Shown here piece after piece: positions 1 to 5,933 of a stretch of DNA of 19,869 nt; the stretch's first letter is position 1; each line of letters opens with the position of its first letter. A program made the position numbers and the translations under genes. The notes beneath the pieces were generated by a model. That model was not told the origin of the DNA. It saw only the letters and a program-made list of their open reading frames with translations, and ran no database searches. This DNA comes from Acinetobacter guillouiae CIP 63.46 (GTDB taxonomy: Bacteria > Pseudomonadota > Gammaproteobacteria > Pseudomonadales > Moraxellaceae): positions 688,455 through 708,323 of the forward strand of contig NZ_KB849283.1 of assembly GCF_000368145.1 (NCBI RefSeq), written 5' to 3'.

Positions 1-17
1 TATACATTATACGAAAT
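1..17 (-). other. dif/pdif-like site A, copy 1 (central region plus XerC-type arm; the XerD side lies outside the window)
   Basis: Minus strand reads ATTTCGTATAA-TGTATA. It is identical to 6269..6285. Confidence 0.6.
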
Positions 18-24
18 GGTATAA

Positions 25-357
25 TTATACCTTTGATAACTCAGGAGTTTTTTGATCTTGAGCTTTCTTTTCTTCTAACTGCAATGGCTTACCGTCACCA
101 GTTGTCTTGTAATAAATATTGCGATCCATGGTTGATTGCTCAATCGGCAAATAAATTTCCCGACCACGATAAGACATGTAAAAATCTTTCATATGATGGT
201 GATCTTCAATTACTTTTACGTTCTGTGAACACGGAACCATTTTTTCTAAACCACGGTCATAACGTTCAGATTCGAAGATCAGGCGCATGTTTAGCCCTTT
301 TTCGTTTGTTGATTGTTCAACATTTATAAGTTTTGCTTTGAAGATTAATTGAGACAT
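25..357 (-). CDS. gV-like ssDNA-binding protein (assigned by position), 110 aa
   Basis: It lies immediately downstream of gII. The ATG at 357 follows a GGTG Shine-Dalgarno that overlaps the gII stop (TAAGGTGAATCTCATG). The ORF-track start at 366 is a GTG. I recognise no sequence similarity to Ff gpV. Confidence 0.6.
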   Translation of the reverse strand: MSQLIFKAKLINVEQSTNEKGLNMRLIFESERYDRGLEKMVPCSQNVKVIEDHHHMKDFYMSYRGREIYLPIEQSTMDRNIYYKTTGDGKPLQLEEKKAQDQKTPELSKV

Positions 358-367
358 GAGATTCACC

Positions 368-733
368 TTAAGATACGAGTTTTAATTGACGTTGATTGAA
401 TGTAGAGACAGGCTCTATAAAGTTTGGCGGTACTTGAGTTTCGAAATTGATTTCTACGAGTTTGATAAACGGTATGACGTTGTTTTTAGAGTCAATATGA
501 AGATTCTGTAAATAAGCTTTTGAATAACCAGCAAGAATCAAATCTGCCATTTGTGCAAAGAACTGGGATTTTCCATATTGTTTTTTCATTGCTTCACAGC
601 CATGAATTTCTAAAGCACAATAAAAGTTAAATAGATTCCTTGCCTTAGTTGTACTAACACGACCTGTAGGCGTAACAGTACCAAAGACATTGCACAGAGT
701 TTTAAAGATAGAATCGTGATCAGTAGTTTTCAT
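368..733 (-). CDS. Nested in-frame gene X analogue (C-terminal 121 aa of gpII)
   Basis: The internal ATG at 733 is preceded by GAGG 8 nt upstream (GAGGGTTCAGCCATG). The Met aligns with the gpX start of Ff (ours EGSAM-KTTDHD, f1 EGDSM-NIYDD). Confidence 0.5.
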   Translation of the reverse strand: MKTTDHDSIFKTLCNVFGTVTPTGRVSTTKARNLFNFYCALEIHGCEAMKKQYGKSQFFAQMADLILAGYSKAYLQNLHIDSKNNVIPFIKLVEINFETQVPPNFIEPVSTFNQRQLKLVS

Positions 734-1609
734 GGCTGAACCCTCAAGGGCTTTGAATATTTCAGAATTTGCTTTGACCCATAGGTCTTTTAAAAAATCA
801 GGATTTTCACGTTGGTGGCGTATAAGTTGAAATAAATTCGTTGGTAAACCGAGTTCTTTTAAAACATATTTCTTGATACCGGTTTCAAAGCGTAACAGCC
901 CTTTTGCCCACGCTTGTAAATCAGGATCAGACATAACTTTGACAACACGTAAAGCACATTTATCATTAGCTTTTGATAACTTGATTTGTTCTTCTAGTTG
1001 ATTCTGAAATTCATTAAATTTGCCGTAAACTTTACGTGCATAGCGTTTTGATCGTTCTGAACCGAAATAAATTGTATTCTTATAAACAATCTCTTTTTGT
1101 GATTTACGGATATGTCTTGAAGACATGTTACGCATAAAATCAAGGGCTTGTGCTACTTGGTTTTCATCTTTTAAACGTGCTGAATATGTTGCATCAAGCT
1201 GTAGAACTTCTGTTTCAGAAATACAAAGCATCGAGTAAAGCGTAGGATGTGATTCAGCAAGATAACCAAGCATTTCCATTGCACCTTCTTCAATCCAGTC
1301 AGAACCATAAACATTGTGACCTTGCAGAATCTTTGCTGGTGAAGCCTTGAGTTCAACATGTGGGTAATAACGACCCTCATGAAAGAATTTAAAAGCCATA
1401 GCTGTATGAGATGTGGGTAATCTTTCCCAACCATGATTTAAAACACGATGTTGAGTTTTACCCTCTTCATCTTTGTAGACATCCCAAGAACCAACTTTTT
1501 TAAGATCAAGATCAAGCATGTCAAAACCTAAAATGCAATGATTACCGTCTTCAGTGATATCAACTAAAGAAGCATCAATAGGAATATGCATTACGATTTT
1601 GTCTAACAT
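368..1609 (-). CDS. Rolling-circle replication initiator, Ff gene II protein homologue, 413 aa
   Basis: The start is taken at Met55 of the 467-aa ORF (MLDKIVMHIPID). It shows colinear similarity to f1/M13 gpII as I remember it: YPHVELKASPAKILQGHNVYG vs YPCVEIKASPAKVLQGHNVFG; LDATYSARL vs IDATFSARA; SDPDLQAWAKGLLRFETGIK vs SNPDLLEFASGLVRFEARIK; VIPFIKLVEINF vs VVPLVRFINVDF. Confidence 0.92.
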   Translation of the reverse strand: MLDKIVMHIPIDASLVDITEDGNHCILGFDMLDLDLKKVGSWDVYKDEEGKTQHRVLNHGWERLPTSHTAMAFKFFHEGRYYPHVELKASPAKILQGHNVYGSDWIEEGAMEMLGYLAESHPTLYSMLCISETEVLQLDATYSARLKDENQVAQALDFMRNMSSRHIRKSQKEIVYKNTIYFGSERSKRYARKVYGKFNEFQNQLEEQIKLSKANDKCALRVVKVMSDPDLQAWAKGLLRFETGIKKYVLKELGLPTNLFQLIRHQRENPDFLKDLWVKANSEIFKALEGSAMKTTDHDSIFKTLCNVFGTVTPTGRVSTTKARNLFNFYCALEIHGCEAMKKQYGKSQFFAQMADLILAGYSKAYLQNLHIDSKNNVIPFIKLVEINFETQVPPNFIEPVSTFNQRQLKLVS

Positions 1610-1726
1610 AGCTAATATCCACATGCATGCAAATATGCATAAAGCGGAACTTAACACAAATATGCAAGTATGCGCAATACATGCATGCAAAAATACATGT
1701 ATGATTTTCCACATGTTGATACTGGT
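1610..1726. promoter_or_regulatory. Divergent promoter/operator region between gII and the regulator gene
   Basis: ACATGCATGCAAA occurs twice (1621..1633 and 1679..1691), each containing the palindrome CATGCATG. AAATATGCA occurs twice more. Confidence 0.5.
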
Positions 1727-1927
1727 ATGAAAAAAATGGTTCAAAGCGTTCGAATAAACGATCAAGAGCAAGAAATGCTCAGAAAGAAAGCAGTTGAATT
1801 AAACAAAATTTTAATTCAAAAAGGACAACAGCCATTAAGAGATAGCGAGCTAATACATATTCTTGTAGAAGAAGGTTTAGAGCTATTGGAAGTTAGTAAC
1901 AGCGGTACAGTGAAAATAATAAAGTAA
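1727..1927 (+). CDS. Small ribbon-helix-helix-type transcriptional regulator (candidate phage repressor), 66 aa
   Basis: MKKMVQSVRINDQEQEMLRKKAVELNK...LRDSELIHILVEEGLELLE fits a beta-strand/helix/helix (Arc/CopG/MobC-like) pattern. It is transcribed divergently from gII, in the position RstR occupies in CTXphi. The start could instead be the ATG at 1736. Confidence 0.6.
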   Translation: MKKMVQSVRINDQEQEMLRKKAVELNKILIQKGQQPLRDSELIHILVEEGLELLEVSNSGTVKIIK

Positions 1928-1934
1928 GAAATAG

Positions 1935-1981
1935 TCCGAAATTCCGGAGTTAAGTCCACACTAGAGATGGTGGACTTTTTC
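1935..1981 (-). other. Putative plus-strand origin: nick-site hairpin plus adjacent inverted repeat. May double as terminator of the regulator gene.
   Basis: Hairpin AGTCCAC-N10-GTGGACT spans 1953..1976 and is followed by T5 on the + strand. The stem has the same sequence as the Ff ori hairpin (GAGTCCAC GTTCTTTAATA GTGGACTC). A near-palindrome TCCGAAATTCCGGA (1935..1948) lies 3' of it on the phage coding strand. Confidence 0.5.
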
Positions 1982-2063
1982 AAGTCTGCCCTTTCACTTA
2001 GCTCTGTCCTTCGCCTCCTCCTCCTCGTACCTCGTCGTCGTCGTTGGCGTCCATCACAGAAAG

Positions 2064-2092
2064 AAGTCGCATAATGCGGATTGATGTTAAAT
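2064..2092 (+). other. dif-like site C (attP arm 2), 7-nt central region
   Basis: AAGTCGCATAA-TGCGGAT-TGATGTTAAAT. The XerD-type arm matches TTATGTTAAAT at 10/11. Confidence 0.6.
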
Positions 2093-2163
2093 GCACTGCA
2101 TTTCTTAAAAAAGAAAATGCCATTTTCTGATCGGGAAAATGACATTTTAATAAGGTGCAATGC

Positions 2164-2198
2164 AAGTAACATAATCACGCAGTTACATTATGCGAAAT
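2164..2198 (-). other. dif-like site B (attP arm 1), 13-nt central region, in its phage-phage context
   Basis: Minus strand reads ATTTCGCATAA-TGTAACTGCGTGA-TTATGTTACTT. The XerD-type arm matches at 9/11. The repeat ends exactly at the outer base of the XerC-type arm. Confidence 0.65.
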
Positions 2199-2405
2199 CA
2201 GTCTCTTAATAAAATAATCATATGACAGATACAAAAGGCTAAAAGCAAATGAGCGTAGATAGTAGGCTCACCATCATTATAAAATATTTTAAATACCCAA
2301 TATGGGTCATAATTTATTGTAATATTTTGCCAGTCCATTTCACTACCTATAAAAAATTTCAAAGACTTAAACAAAAATTTCAGATCGGAAGGAAGATAAT
2401 GCCAA

Positions 2406-2585
2406 TCATTCTTCTAGTTCTTTCTGTTGATGAGATTCAATTTCTTCATTTAAAACTAGCTTATGACAAAACCAACAAAACGTATATTTGGCTTCAATTT
2501 TTTTAAGCACTAGTGATGCAGAATACCCACCATCCTCTCTCAATGCCCAATATATCGAATTAAGTTCGTCTAAGTTAAATTCCAT
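2406..2585 (-). CDS. Hypothetical small phage protein, 59 aa (below the ORF-track cutoff)
   Basis: MEFNLDELNSIYWALREDGGYSASLVLKKIEAKYTFCWFCHKLVLNEEIESHQQKELEE. A GGAG lies 8 nt upstream of the ATG. It is on the same strand as all other phage genes. Confidence 0.4.
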   Translation of the reverse strand: MEFNLDELNSIYWALREDGGYSASLVLKKIEAKYTFCWFCHKLVLNEEIESHQQKELEE

Positions 2586-2800
2586 TGCTATTTCTCCAGT
2601 TCGCGCCTACGGACGCTCTATTTCGACCGTTTTAAGTCATATGGGAGCTTGTGATCAGGAAGAAGAATTTCAATGTTTTAATGGATATTCGTCACTCGTA
2701 GACACTCGTTCATCATTCTCCAGTAAAGAAAAATAAACCAGCAAAAATATAAAGTAATACGAGAAGCAAAAACCATATTCTAAGAAAAAAATTAATCATA

Positions 2801-3988
2801 TCAACTCACTACCTGAGCCTGTAATTGGGGTTGTACATCATTATTCGCTATTTCCACCTGTTTGGGAATATCCGATTGAGAAGCTTGTTGAACAGTGTTC
2901 GTACTATTGCTTTGAGTATTGAATTGAGCATTGTTTTGTACCTGTTGGGGAGATTTTGTATAGTCAAACAGTCGTTCACCGTTTAACCATCTTTTACAAT
3001 CAGCTTGTGAAATACTTGGCATTCTGTTGCCCTGTTGATCAAAGGCGTAGTATTTACCATCATATTTAGAACAACCTGTTAACTTAGGATAATCAACAAC
3101 TTGTATTCTTGCTTGTGGTTTAAAATCATAGGGCTTTGAAGAATCATATGTAACAGCACCATCGTTTGTTATAGAAGCGTTGTTTTTAGACATGTCATTA
3201 AACCACTGTACACATTCAGGCTTTTCGACATTCACACCTTTTCTACAATCTTGTTCAAGAACTAGAGGCTGTTGTGTTGCCGAATTGGCTTGTGTTGGAA
3301 TTTCCTGTTTTATGCTTTGTTCTTGCATTGTTTCTTCTTTTTTATCAGGTTGAGATTTTACCCAAAGCCAACCAGTCGCACCGATCACAAGCACAAGCAT
3401 CCAAATTGCATTGATGATCTTCATCGGAATTTTAATTTTACCGTGAGAATCTTCACCACCATTGGAGCTTTTGTACATACCAAACAGGTTTTTAGGATAA
3501 GTAAACGTACCTGAATCCTCTGCATCTGCCTTGGTCGATTTGGTATTAGGGTTGAGTTGATGATATTTCCACATCCACCAAGTCGCCATTTTCATGCCCA
3601 TTGGTCTGTGTAAATGGTAATGCGTTCCCACCATGTCCAATACGTCAACATTCAGCAATCTAGGGGCTTGTGTGATGTAAATAATATCCAAGAAATCAGC
3701 ATGACGATGGGTTTGTAAAAACTCTACTTCCGGATGGTTTTCGTTTTTAACAGGATGTTTGTACTTTTTTGAGAAATGTGAAATCTTTTGCGCTTCATCA
3801 ATCACAACCAATGAACGTGCTGGATAGTCCTCAAATTTGTCTTTGAGCGGTTGTGCAGTATCTAGACGTAAACCATCAATGTTACTAAAAATGTTCCAAG
3901 GGTCAGTTTCATTGACACGTTTAAATATCTCATTCACTGCCCAAAGGGTTTTTCCTGAGCCTGGAGTCGCTGTAATTAAATAAATCAT
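2801..3988 (-). CDS. Zot-like assembly ATPase (gpI homologue), 395 aa
   Basis: Walker A is MIYLITATPGSGKT and Walker B is LVVIDEAQ. There is a single TM segment (AIWMLVLVIGATGWLWV) followed by a Cys- and Gln-rich periplasmic tail. The gene sits after the gVI-like gene, as in Ff. Confidence 0.9.
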   Translation of the reverse strand: MIYLITATPGSGKTLWAVNEIFKRVNETDPWNIFSNIDGLRLDTAQPLKDKFEDYPARSLVVIDEAQKISHFSKKYKHPVKNENHPEVEFLQTHRHADFLDIIYITQAPRLLNVDVLDMVGTHYHLHRPMGMKMATWWMWKYHQLNPNTKSTKADAEDSGTFTYPKNLFGMYKSSNGGEDSHGKIKIPMKIINAIWMLVLVIGATGWLWVKSQPDKKEETMQEQSIKQEIPTQANSATQQPLVLEQDCRKGVNVEKPECVQWFNDMSKNNASITNDGAVTYDSSKPYDFKPQARIQVVDYPKLTGCSKYDGKYYAFDQQGNRMPSISQADCKRWLNGERLFDYTKSPQQVQNNAQFNTQSNSTNTVQQASQSDIPKQVEIANNDVQPQLQAQVVS

Positions 3989-3997
3989 AGTTTCCCC

Positions 3998-4273
3998 TTA
4001 GGCTTTTGAGAACGACATGCTTGTGCTGGTGATCATGGCACGTGCAATAAATGCTGAAATAACAATAGAAATGCACTGATCTAAACCACTTACACCAACG
4101 AGTGAAGCCAAGTCACCCACGATAAAAAAATCACTCATAAAGCGATTAATCAGGTAGTTAATAACACCTAAAATGATGGTTCCCGAAACAAGCGAAATGC
4201 CAGCACCTTTTAATATACGTTTTAGAAACCCATCACCGAAGCTATCAAGTAATTGTTTGAGTAATTTACCCAT
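3998..4273 (-). CDS. gVI-like minor coat/membrane protein, 91 aa
   Basis: Small hydrophobic protein between the gIII-like gene and gI. Its start overlaps the gIII-like stop by 8 nt. Confidence 0.6.
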   Translation of the reverse strand: MGKLLKQLLDSFGDGFLKRILKGAGISLVSGTIILGVINYLINRFMSDFFIVGDLASLVGVSGLDQCISIVISAFIARAMITSTSMSFSKA

Positions 4274-5579
4274 TTCGAGCAGCTCCTATGACAATGTAAG
4301 CAGCATAAAGATATGAACAAGCAACAAGCGCAGGACGAGCAAGAATAAGCACTTGACACAATGGCGTCATATCAAATGAGAAGTTAACGGATACACCAGA
4401 CAAGCTGATTGTGTGTTGTTCAGGAATTGGACATTGTCGTGATACAGCAAAGCGATCTTTTGAGAATATTGATGTGTCAAATTCATCAGGCTTTTTTATT
4501 TCAATATCATTTGAATCATCTTTATCAGGTTGCTCTTTTGTCCAGTCAAACCAGTCCTCTACCTTTTGCCAAAATGTTCTTTCTTTCTCTCGTTGAGCTT
4601 CTTCTTGTTGTCTTGCTATTTCTTCTCGTTGCCAAGCGACTTGTTCAGACTGACGTTGAGCTTCAGCTTGTTTTGAATCTTCTTTATATTTTTTGTACCA
4701 TTCACATACAGTTACAGCCCATGAGCAGAATTCAGGAAGTGTAAAATCTTCACCAACACTCGGTTTTTCAGGGTCGTAAACGTCAGGTTTTCCGTCTCCA
4801 TCCGTGTCCACATTTGGTTTAGGTTTTGTGCTTCCAGTAGGGTCTGTTTCAGGAATTGGAGGAGCATTATCTAAAGCATCTGCTGTAGATTCGGGAGCTT
4901 GACCACCTGCAGGATTATTAGGGTTATATATGTCAGGTAATACTTGTGGTGCTTCAGGTGAATTATTTACTTCATTACCGATTTGGGTTTCTGAAACAGG
5001 GACTAATTCTGTAGATGGTTGATAATTTGGATTTTTATAATAATCATACGGAGTTGGATAAGATACACCATCTTTACGTGTTATTGTACATTGACCCTTC
5101 ATAGTACTCGGATCAACTTTAGTACAACCTCCGATTGAAGCACCGAGCAAATATCCAGCTTGTTGATTCGTTGCTAAATACAAATTAGCAGCGTCTTGTG
5201 CTGATTTACCAATATTTCCACTTACACCGTAAAGATATTCCCAATTCTCAATTGTATTTTTTACAGGCTTTTTAATTACACCGTTATCAATAACCCAGCC
5301 AACACCTTGGATAATTCCGTAAACAACAGCACCTAAAAGTCCTAAACGAGCCATAGAGGCTACTGTTGAACCTGTTGCGCCTGCTGTGACAGGAACACGA
5401 GCTTTATAAAAAGGGTCATTTGATGCAACGGCTGTTGCACGTTTAGCAGTTACATCTATCACTTTTGCGACAGACTCATAGACAACTTTTTCGACTACCC
5501 ATTTTTCAGCGCCTGCAAATGTTAAAGACGGAGTAAGGCATATTGTTAAGGACAATAAAAACACAAGGAATTTTTTCAT
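4266..5579 (-). CDS. gIII-like adsorption/minor coat protein, 437 aa
   Basis: It has a signal peptide (MKKFLVFLLSLTICLTPSLTFA|GA), a Pro/Gly-rich linker, a charged coiled-coil-like stretch and a C-terminal membrane anchor (ALVACSYLYAAYIVIGA). AAGGA lies upstream of the ATG at 5579, with an alternative ATG at 5585. The 499-aa ORF-track version overlaps gVIII and is an artefactual extension. Confidence 0.75.
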   Translation of the reverse strand: MKKFLVFLLSLTICLTPSLTFAGAEKWVVEKVVYESVAKVIDVTAKRATAVASNDPFYKARVPVTAGATGSTVASMARLGLLGAVVYGIIQGVGWVIDNGVIKKPVKNTIENWEYLYGVSGNIGKSAQDAANLYLATNQQAGYLLGASIGGCTKVDPSTMKGQCTITRKDGVSYPTPYDYYKNPNYQPSTELVPVSETQIGNEVNNSPEAPQVLPDIYNPNNPAGGQAPESTADALDNAPPIPETDPTGSTKPKPNVDTDGDGKPDVYDPEKPSVGEDFTLPEFCSWAVTVCEWYKKYKEDSKQAEAQRQSEQVAWQREEIARQQEEAQREKERTFWQKVEDWFDWTKEQPDKDDSNDIEIKKPDEFDTSIFSKDRFAVSRQCPIPEQHTISLSGVSVNFSFDMTPLCQVLILARPALVACSYLYAAYIVIGAARNG

Positions 5580-5659
5580 TTTCATTTCCTTAGCAATAAA
5601 TAAAAACAGACAGACATAAGAATTAAATAGAAGAATCCGAAAGACATTTTTTGATCTCC

Positions 5660-5686
5660 AATAAAAATGGGGAGCGAACTCCCCAA
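5660..5686 (-). terminator. Intrinsic terminator directly after the major coat gene
   Basis: Minus strand reads GGGGAG-TTCG-CTCCCC followed by ATTTTTATT, 7 nt after the gVIII stop. Ff has a terminator in the same position. Confidence 0.8.
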
Positions 5687-5691
5687 GTTTA

Positions 5692-5931
5692 TTAAGTACG
5701 GTTGAACGCTTGTTTGACGTAGCCCCACACTTGAATTGTTGCGTTTGGAATGATCTTTGCAGCACCGATCAAAGCGATAACAGCAACACCAGTAGCAATT
5801 ACAGCAGTACCCGCAGAAACGTCTGGACCCTCAGCAAATGCACTTGTTGAAGCTACAAATGGAGTAGCAACAATCAGAACTTTTTGAGCTAAGTTAAGAC
5901 CTTTTTTTGGAGTTTGGTTTTGATTTTTCAT
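5692..5931 (-). CDS. Major coat protein (gVIII-like) precursor, 79 aa
   Basis: The signal peptide ends at SAFA|EG. The 46-aa mature part has an acidic N-terminus, a hydrophobic core (VIATGVAVIALIGAA) and a basic C-terminus (KQAFNRT). An AAGGT Shine-Dalgarno is present. Confidence 0.85.
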   Translation of the reverse strand: MKNQNQTPKKGLNLAQKVLIVATPFVASTSAFAEGPDVSAGTAVIATGVAVIALIGAAKIIPNATIQVWGYVKQAFNRT

Positions 5932-5933
5932 GA

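Follow-up and report, generated by a model that had tools for sequence, protein, structure and literature searches.

We analysed a stretch of 19,869 nucleotides from Acinetobacter guillouiae CIP 63.46 (NCBI RefSeq assembly GCF_000368145.1, contig NZ_KB849283.1, positions 688,455–708,323), referred to here as the window, in which filamentous phage (inovirus) DNA adjoins the Acinetobacter chromosome, and we focus on a 135-nt hairpin region of the phage that carries two inverted sites resembling dif, the chromosomal site of the host XerC and XerD recombinases, and that is probably the site by which the phage attaches. The window holds an inovirus prophage array made up of one full copy and a 2198-bp partial copy, with 1.35 tandem copies present of a unit of 6268 bp. 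The complete copy lies at 2199..8466 on the minus strand, and the partial second copy (1..2198, minus strand) runs through the hairpin, the regulator, gpII and the ssb-like gene up to a further dif-like site which we call site T. Positions 1–2198 and 6269–8466 share 100% identity, and this identity ends exactly at 2198/8466.

In the (+) orientation of the phage the order of elements is hairpin, reg85, gpII, ssb-like gene, site T, orf65, major coat, g3-like, g6-like, Zot/gpI and orf59, and the replication and morphogenesis genes are all found on the minus strand of the window. These encode a gpII-type replication protein (6636–7877; PF05144, 7e-45), a 110-aa protein in the position of an ssDNA (single-stranded DNA)-binding protein (ssb-like, 6293–6625), orf65 (5934–6131), a major-coat-like protein (5692–5931), the g3-like (4266–5579) and g6-like (3998–4273) proteins and Zot/gpI (2801–3988; PF05707, 2e-14), with orf59 (2406–2585, minus strand), which encodes a CxxC-containing protein of 59 aa belonging to PHROG 10717, adjoining the hairpin. 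The small divergent regulator-like open reading frame (ORF) reg85 (7938–8195) is on the opposite strand to the other phage genes, and a TspB-like adsorption protein and a DUF2523 protein (minus strand) are among the phage proteins. The (+) strand of an inovirus has mRNA sense, and the packaged (+) strand is therefore the minus strand of the window. Scans of the phage ORFs against Pfam and PHROG matched the replication protein, Zot and the coat proteins and found no integrase, transposase or recombinase, and left orf65 and the ssb-like gene, the neighbours of site T, without a match of known function. A near-identity (megablast) search of the phage collection gave no nucleotide match to CTXphi, the sole hit being a 72-nt stretch of Acinetobacter phage M02. 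On the other side of the array, host DNA left of dif (the XerC-arm side) occupies 8467..8569 and is followed by a LysR-family gene (8570–9469, minus strand), and the chromosomal genes from 8467 onwards also include LrgAB, an MFS transporter, tyrosinase and others. The LysR protein assigns the host to the Acinetobacter bereziniae/guillouiae group.

The 135-nt region is present at 2064–2198 and again at 8332–8466, and in each case comprises two inverted XerC/XerD-type sites 71 nt apart with central regions of 7 and 13 nt. The bottom site, which is attP2-like, reads AAGTCGCATAA-TGCGGAT-TGATGTTAAAT on the plus strand (2064..2092 in the partial copy and 8332..8360, inverted, in the full copy), has the 7-nt central region, and is the most conserved element of the phage family. 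The attP1-like top site reads ATTTCGCATAA-TGTAACTGCGTGA-TTATGTTACTT on the minus strand, and in the full copy (8432..8466) it abuts host DNA and forms the left prophage junction, with the XerC-type arm ATTTCGCATAA at 8466–8456, the 13-nt central region TGTAACTGCGTGA at 8455–8443 and the XerD-type arm TTATGTTACTT at 8442–8432. In the partial copy the same site (2164..2198, minus strand) sits at the phage–phage junction of the tandem array, where it is preceded by the phage's own upstream sequence (…AAGAGACTG|ATTTCGCATAA). An initial annotation of this DNA had described both sites as dif-like and had placed them at 2064–2092 (plus strand) and 2198–2164 (minus strand); on re-reading, the site sequences, coordinates, inversion, 71-nt spacing and the 7- and 13-nt central regions proved exact, and our recount of the XerD-type arms against the dif arm TTATGTTAAAT gave the same 10/11 and 9/11 matches. 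Single arms with two mismatches are common by chance, so that it is the combination of arms which is significant, and the composite pattern TCGCATAA-N5-14-TKATGTTA has four matches (two sites in each of the two phage copies) compared with none in 200 shuffles.

The region folds stably as single-stranded DNA, with an energy of −30.8 kcal/mol for the minus strand and −29.3 kcal/mol for the plus strand, compared with −13.3 ± 2.8 kcal/mol for shuffled sequences (z = −6.2). The minimum-energy fold starts with the pairing of TCGCATAA with TTATGCGA, is interrupted by a 6-nt top-strand bulge (TGTAAC), and continues with TGCG:CGCA, a bulged T, GATT:AATC, a bottom-strand bulged C, ATGTTA:TAACAT, the inner stem and the apical stem-loop; the bulges are thus of 6 nt (TGTAAC) and 1 nt (T) on the 13-nt side and of 1 nt (C) on the 7-nt side. 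The pairings first proposed for the outer (11/13) and inner (8/11) arms are correct, but the asymmetric 5/11-nt bubble that had been placed at the central region is tighter in the minimum-energy fold, which pairs part of it (TGCG:CGCA and GATT:AATC). The 71-nt interior (2093..2163 and 8361..8431, minus strand) contains the inner stem GCATTGCA/TGCAGTGC, which adjoins the XerD arms, and at its apex a 14-bp stem-loop followed by the T run CTTTTTT (2114–2148 and 8382–8416, minus strand). The apex scores as a terminator, and from its sequence it looks like the terminator of the morphogenesis operon. We note that many relatives have clear GC-rich terminators inside the hairpin, followed by a conserved TTTTTTGTCAATG motif.

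The second feature to be explained is where the phage DNA ends. The second copy of the hairpin gives way to non-phage DNA precisely where the XerC-type arm has its outer edge (8466), and the same junction is found in two independent assemblies, GCA_000414055.1 and SRR654220 (loci L001 and L002 of our set), and is therefore not an assembly artefact. In the nearest phage-free genome, Acinetobacter sp. AS167 (L003), in which the LysR orthologue is 98% identical and the downstream flank is the same as that of the window, the empty site reads [flank]-ATTTCGCATAA-TGTATA-TTATGTTAAAT and is followed by unrelated DNA, and LysR orthologues are followed by this 28-mer also in A. nematophilus, in two contigs of one metagenome-assembled A. 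bereziniae genome and in A. rongchengensis (L004, L005, L006 and L009). In the window the counterpart of this flank runs into ATTTCGCATAA-TGTAACTGCGTGA-TTATGTTACTT instead. The empty site had been predicted in exactly this form, and the copy at 8332..8466 had been said to meet host DNA just outside the XerC arm while retaining the phage central region and XerD-type arm; the AS167 and four related loci and the point at which identity stops bear this out, as do our ORF scans the claim that the phage has no integrase of its own. The dif sequence and the 13-nt site have 15 nt in common, ATTTCGCATAATGTA, and this crossover interval includes the XerC cleavage position after the eleventh base; beyond the arm, the phage TGTAACTGCGTGA is identical to dif TGTATA in its first 4 nt and unrelated in the remainder. 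Judged from these sequences the phage is inserted at dif, and the XerC cleavage and joining point is best placed between 8456 and 8455. The site at the junction is the 5′ one of the (+) strand hairpin, which is where XerC top-strand exchange on the folded (+) strand would place it; had the folded complementary strand been exchanged, the junction would lie at 2064.

We compared the hairpin with those of relatives taken from a gpII-based scan of IMG/VR (22 loci with 45–100% identity) and from a DNA-pattern scan for dif, which added many more loci, and the two together gave 47 distinct hairpins of 93–161 nt. The family shares a common layout of hairpin, divergent regulator, gpII, ssb-like gene, a dif-like site with a 6-bp central region, minor and major coat, g3, g6, Zot, orf59 and again the hairpin. 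Positions 5–11 of the XerC arm are paired in all 47 hairpins, with position 7 being C-G in 29, T-G in 13 and T-A in five, and in the XerD arm positions 1, 3–8 and 11 are paired and positions 2, 9 and 10 are conserved mismatches. In nearly every hairpin these three mismatches are T·C, C·T or T·T, and T·T (2082–2092 against 2164–2174 in the window), and the two strands keep their identity with dif at different positions. RNAalifold recovered both arms and read the position-2 XerD mismatch as a conserved 1-nt bulge. When whole hairpins were aligned with MAFFT and analysed with RNAalifold the interiors, which vary in length, were misaligned and the inner stem was absent from the consensus, and we therefore used an alignment anchored on the XerD arm in its place. 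In this alignment the 6-bp inner stem is represented by 18 different sequences (e.g., AGCCCC/GGGGCT, GCACTG/CAGTGC, ATCAAT/ATTGAT and GCCATG/CATGGC), with a pairing of 0.84 compared with 0.46 ± 0.05 when the 3′ halves were shuffled among classes, and this level was reached in 0 of 5000 shuffles. The stable single-stranded fold expected by the initial annotation is found at about −31 kcal/mol in the window, and its pairing is kept by compensatory change across the 47 natural variants.

The central region behaves differently on the two strands. The top central region ranges from 7 to 13 nt in relatives and varies even where gpII is 99% identical (L021 compared with the window), whereas the bottom central region is nearly always 7 nt long and is TGCAGAT, TGAAGAT or TGCGGAT in most relatives. 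The XerD-proximal central helix covaries in RNAalifold, with a weak shuffle test (0.75 compared with 0.67, a value reached in 296 of 5000 shuffles), and the four hairpins we folded individually (window, L020, L038 and L058) have a top-strand bulge of 0–7 nt which starts 0–3 nt past the cleavage point. The (+) strand is the more stable of the two through G-T pairs in 32 of the 47 hairpins and in 13 of 16 classes, although with a gap of about 1 kcal/mol and related sequences this is weak evidence. Taken together, constant arms, fixed mismatches and a compensated stem point to selection on the folded single strand, as a site used only as duplex would not show this pattern. The variation also defines what such a site would need, namely invariant arm cores, three arm mismatches, a covarying XerD-proximal helix and a variable top-strand bulge beside the XerC cut.

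We consider it likely that the 135-nt region is a CTXphi-type attP(+) of an integrase-less Acinetobacter inovirus, and that it works in a folded, single-stranded form; by analogy with CTXphi we infer that catalysis would be by XerC only, that the substrate would be ssDNA and that the product would be resolved by replication. In the packaged (+) strand the two inverted dif-like sites would pair to give one XerC-binding arm and one XerD-binding arm, with the central region between them base-paired on the XerD side only and the 6-nt top-strand bulge beginning beside the XerC cleavage point. Host XerC and XerD would then bind the folded stem together with chromosomal dif, XerC would cut after ATTTCGCATAA on the 5′ half of the hairpin and on the top strand of dif, the strands would be swapped, and the phage TGTA would pair with the complement of dif TGTATA, leaving a pseudo-Holliday junction that would become a prophage through replication. 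As duplex DNA, sites with 13- and 7-bp central regions would, by the same analogy, not be plausible Xer substrates and should be inert, in which case the insertion would not be reversed through them.

Several observations weigh against this interpretation. The two strands fold almost alike (−30.8 and −29.3 kcal/mol) and energetics alone cannot pick the (+) strand, and the top central regions of several relatives begin TA… and not TGT…, so that a single nucleotide is shared with TGTATA beside the cleavage point. The distal end of the array falls outside the window, with the contig stopping inside the phage, and exact-pattern scans of viral and metagenome collections gave no match to a junction between the orf59 end of the window phage and dif. 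Finally, the canonical duplex site T could provide a second Xer route.

The model for this interpretation is the CTXphi attP(+) of Vibrio cholerae, reportedly described by Val and colleagues in 2005 and by Das and colleagues in 2010. This consists of two inverted pairs of XerCD sites with 12- and 5–7-bp central regions, 90 bp apart, in a folded region of about 150 nt which has unpaired bases in the central region and arms, and in which homology to dif is confined to the side cut by XerC (PMC4246890; PMC3442271). Integration is by a single XerC-catalysed strand exchange that is resolved by replication, and is irreversible because the duplex sites are inert (PMC4246890; PMC3442271). The window phage has similar dimensions, with central regions of 13 and 7 (12 and 5–7 in CTXphi), a spacing of 71 nt (90 in CTXphi) and a fold of 135 nt (about 150 in CTXphi), and as in CTXphi its inverted site pairs lie between the end of the morphogenesis genes and the divergent regulator, it has unpaired bases in the central region and arms, and its identity with dif is found only beside the XerC cleavage point. 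Both phages insert at dif without an integrase and form tandem or partial-copy arrays, and both have the module order regulator, replication protein, ssDNA-binding-type protein and structural genes. The window phage differs in having an Acinetobacter (Moraxellaceae) host and in being known here from sequence alone, in a hairpin with a continuous stem, a variable top-strand bulge, a conserved 1-nt XerD-arm bulge and a terminator-like hairpin in its loop, and in having an additional canonical dif-like site in its genome. Ypfphi of Yersinia pestis and CUS-1phi of E. coli are CTXphi-related members assigned from sequence (PMC4246890 Table 2; PMC3442271), and judging by their descriptions they resemble the window phage in being integrase-less inoviruses found in tandem at dif, though in different hosts. 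The integron attC site is also active only as a folded single strand with extrahelical bases and gives a junction resolved by replication (PMC4792948), but it is recombined by IntI and lacks dif-like arms.

The same junction sequences would also be expected from a duplex reaction of the VGJphi type in which the top site alone (ATTTCGCATAA-13 bp-TTATGTTACTT) recombines with dif by XerC exchange and the hairpin is irrelevant, but we regard this as very unlikely. Known XerCD substrates have central regions of 6–8 bp, and here the top one ranges between 7 and 13 bp and differs in sequence too, even where two phages have 99% identical gpII; nor does the 12-bp duplex attP1 of CTXphi act as a substrate (PMC4246890). 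A duplex reaction would also leave unexplained why the bottom site is the best-kept element, why the arms pair and why the inner stem covaries. It should be noted as well that a VGJ-type phage has a single duplex attP with a 6–7-bp central region at both prophage ends, whereas the host-proximal junction in the window is at the 13-nt site and not at the 6-bp site T.

Site T is a canonical 28-bp dif-like site (ATTTCGTATAA-TGTATA-ATATGTAAATA; 6258..6285, minus strand) located between the ssb-like gene and orf65. It has the central region of dif, an XerC arm matching at 10/11 and a degenerate XerD arm (7/11), and is in the same orientation as the host dif. Almost every relative we fetched has a T-type site at the corresponding place, with XerD arms ranging from ATATGTTAAAA to the perfect TTATGTTAAAT (perfect in L024). 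The window itself begins within a truncated site T (1..17, minus strand), at the last base of the central region (…ATTTCGTATAA-TGTATA|), and there are other assemblies which stop here: contig L017 (VZOG01000030.1) ends exactly after TGTATA of site T, and GCA_000414055.1 (L019) is broken at the same two places, the XerC arm of the hairpin and site T, although the DRR015599 assembly is unbroken at T. SRR29904083 includes a 2213-bp unitig that is the hairpin-to-T segment alone, which we refer to as R-only, where R is the regulator–rep–ssb module and B the structural module, and a look-up of the ssb-like protein returned the same contig, a unit-length Logan contig and the R-only unitig. Assemblies that break after …TGTATA indicate a branch in the assembly graph, where one copy of T continues differently, most simply into a hybrid of T and dif. 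We note that the phage M02 record (L020, OQ693633) has two direct T-type sites about 400 nt apart (111–138 and 5927–5954), one with a perfect dif XerD arm, and that the short stretch which separates them (AGAATATTTGAAAACCTACCATATATAAGGC…) is met again behind T-type sites in many loci of the A. baumannii type; we had considered M02 as a free-phage reference, but the record derives from a circular Illumina contig (PMC12285184) and is no proof of an episomal sequence.

As its central region is that of dif and its XerC arm is good, T might be thought to be the main route of entry and exit, in the manner of TLCphi or VGJphi, with the hairpin junction a secondary rearrangement, and both the contig end at T and the common occurrence of T/dif hybrids at the distal end of related arrays would agree with this. 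The attP of TLCphi resembles T in being a single 28-bp duplex site in which the XerC arm and the central region are near-identical to dif and the XerD arm is degenerate (PMC4246890). We nonetheless find this route highly improbable as the main one: in the window, as in two further assemblies, the host-proximal junction falls at the hairpin, and T, unlike the attP of TLCphi and VGJphi, is not used there; entry through T alone would put the structural genes and not the hairpin beside LysR; and no locus has a junction of the form [dif XerC arm-TGTATA-T XerD arm] beside the DNA left of dif. There was no DUF3653/XafT-like match in any ORF, and hence no homologue was detected of the Xer activation factor that TLC-type (XerD-first) elements encode beside attP, and the perfect T XerD arm of some relatives (L024) is a further difference from the TLCphi and VGJphi sites. 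We also considered orf59 as an Xer activation factor or FtsK-gamma mimic and rejected it for want of any Pfam, PDB-sequence or annotated PHROG match. That the region is just an ordinary intergenic hairpin (a terminator, packaging signal or minus-strand origin) whose likeness to dif and junction came about by homologous or illegitimate recombination is scarcely credible. In its favour, inovirus intergenic regions are rich in hairpins, the apex here is a terminator-like stem-loop with a T run, and many relatives have clear terminators inside theirs. Against it, both arms of the outer 29 and 35 nt resemble dif where none would be expected by chance, the arms are constant while the interior is replaced, the insertion is at chromosomal dif itself, and a terminator in the loop is compatible with an attP and no substitute for it.

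With the folded attP(+) as the preferred reading of the left junction, the distal end of the array can be approached through relatives. In L085, a single-copy relative with the hairpin at the left, the sequence 6756 bp further on reads phage end-ATTTCGCATAA-TGTATA-TTATGTTAAAT and then non-phage DNA; a distal junction of this kind is also found in L106, and in L090, L143 and L154 the rebuilt dif is preceded by a left-flank motif that matches (…GACTG). The reconstituted dif which the initial annotation suggested seeking at the other end of the array was thus seen in relatives (L085 and L106), but was not found for the window phage in exact-pattern scans. In L047, L060, L064, L115 and L120 the last hairpin–rep module ends in [T XerC arm]-TGTATA-TTATGTTAAAT, and in L094, L050/L097, L091/L118, L117 and L129 such a T/dif hybrid is followed by the same sequence as forms the right-hand flank of the empty dif of L003, L005 and L006; in relatives that bear T, the distal hybrid is a complete dif-like site as well. 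In the same scans, the T/dif junction pattern of the window phage itself was matched by L094 alone in the viral collection and by nothing in the metagenomes. An attempt to reach the distal junction through the Lrp/AsnC gene to the right of dif in L003 was abandoned, as the genomes of two homologues had no dif nearby and synteny was not conserved. On the basis of these sequences the array would be DNA left of dif, hairpin, R, T, B, hairpin, R, T/dif, and DNA right of dif.

Candidate origins for such an array include the following: Xer recombination of T with the rebuilt dif might have deleted the B module of the last copy, the hairpin might have mediated the insertion of an R-only element with a T-type top XerC arm, or a full replicative form might have been inserted reversibly, by T × T/dif recombination, beside a resident R element. 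In L027 (887–3097), L094 (2053–4315) and L113 (503–3882) an R module is followed downstream, without intervening structural genes, by a hairpin with a T-type XerC arm (…CGTATAA), which indicates that T/dif hybrids are themselves used as targets, and the sequences suggest that tandem hairpin–rep modules are RS1-like satellite elements which insert into T/dif hybrids. Comparison of L021 with the window gives 96–100% identity for the R-module proteins and 26–28% for the B-module proteins, and such a mosaic implies that modules are exchanged at the hairpin and T.

The partial copy of the window (hairpin, regulator, gpII and ssb-like gene) beside a full copy mirrors the CTXphi–RS1 array. In that system, a full copy with RS1 allows rolling-circle production of unit-length CTXphi (+) DNA (Moyer et al. 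2001, as cited in PMC3442271). Unlike RS1, the partial copy ends at Xer site T, or in relatives in a T/dif hybrid, and it has no rstC-like extra gene; these ends suggest, from sequence, that the RS1-like partial copy may have been made or moved by Xer recombination. We tentatively propose, at somewhat less than even confidence, a two-site Xer strategy in which the hairpin captures the incoming strand at dif and duplex T then recombines with dif or with another T. If this were true, it would make or mobilise RS1-like hairpin–rep–ssb elements ending in a T/dif hybrid, the full replicative form could be inserted and excised reversibly beside such an element so that CTX-type lysogeny would no longer be irreversible, and replication and morphogenesis modules could be swapped between phages at the two Xer sites. 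[quoted passage not shown]

Site T also has counterparts outside phages. The XerC/D sites known as pdif flank resistance modules on Acinetobacter plasmids (PMC7399989, PMC9771954), and T resembles these in having a 6-bp central region; some T-type sites combine the XerC arm ACTTCGTATAA with TTATGTTAAAT, which are the arms of the pdif oligonucleotide ODN3 (PMC7399989). The pdif central regions differ from TGTATA, and pdif modules are on plasmids and usually flanked by inverted sites (PMC7399989, PMC9771954). The phage family forms a link between phage biology and the Xer-site (pdif) traffic by which resistance genes are moved in Acinetobacter.

Folded ssDNA as an XerCD attachment site has been worked out experimentally for CTXphi only, with other members assigned from sequence and found in enterobacteria, and an Acinetobacter example would mean that the strategy is spread more widely among the gamma-proteobacteria. 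The filamentous prophages of Acinetobacter have been reported in the form of tandem repeats and said to 'probably use host integration machinery' (PMC11209303), and neither this paper nor PMC12285184 includes an attachment-site analysis for Acinetobacter filamentous phages, with nothing closer in the searchable literature; within that literature, a CTX-type attP(+) is undescribed for Acinetobacter and T and T/dif hybrids are unreported. The hairpin would give a mechanistic basis for the tandem filamentous prophages of A. baumannii, where the use of XerCD had only been guessed (PMC11209303), and as the XerC and XerD of A. baumannii have been cloned and are functional (PMC7399989), the family offers a test bed.

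Some further observations concern dif and its surroundings. The published dif of Acinetobacter sp. ADP1 is GATTCGTATAATGTATATTATGTTAAAT (PMC2731167) and differs from the L003-type dif at three positions, all in the XerC arm. This ADP1 site, GATTCGTATAA-TGTATA-TTATGTTAAAT (PMC2731167), has a T-type XerC arm (T at position 7) and is also found in IMG/VR loci (L051 and L119) beside phage-like flanks, which raises the possibility that the reference 'dif' of ADP1 may be a phage-derived hybrid. The approximately 25 nt to the left of site T (…TATCAAAGGTATAATTATACC; 6286–6310, minus strand) and to the left of dif (…TATATCAATTACTTAATTTATATT; 8467–8495, minus strand; L003 10978–11002) have a common TATCAA(A/T) motif and AT-rich spacing, and this likeness could be due to chance, common descent or an accessory binding site. 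A homologue of orf59 (50% identical, E = 5e-20) lies between LysR and the otherwise empty dif in A. nematophilus and A. bereziniae (L004 10976–11164; also L005–L007), and is either what an earlier insertion left behind or a gene that has been kept.

A second, inverted filamentous prophage is found directly on the XerD-arm side of dif in L006 (1514–7369) and also in L061, L063, L068, L076, L077, L103 and L113. It has zot, g6, g3, coat and a 483-aa Rep on the opposite strand and begins with an imperfect palindrome (GAGACTGTGGCC…GCCACAGCTC), and in L003 the palindrome alone remains. Within the window phage, a CCT/CGT triplet-repeat tract (TCGCCTCCTCCTCCTCGTACCTCGTCGTCGTCGTTGG) is located between the regulator gene and the hairpin at 2010–2050 and 8278–8318, where the phage (+) strand is purine-rich, and the tract at 2010–2050 is a possible origin or gpII-binding region.

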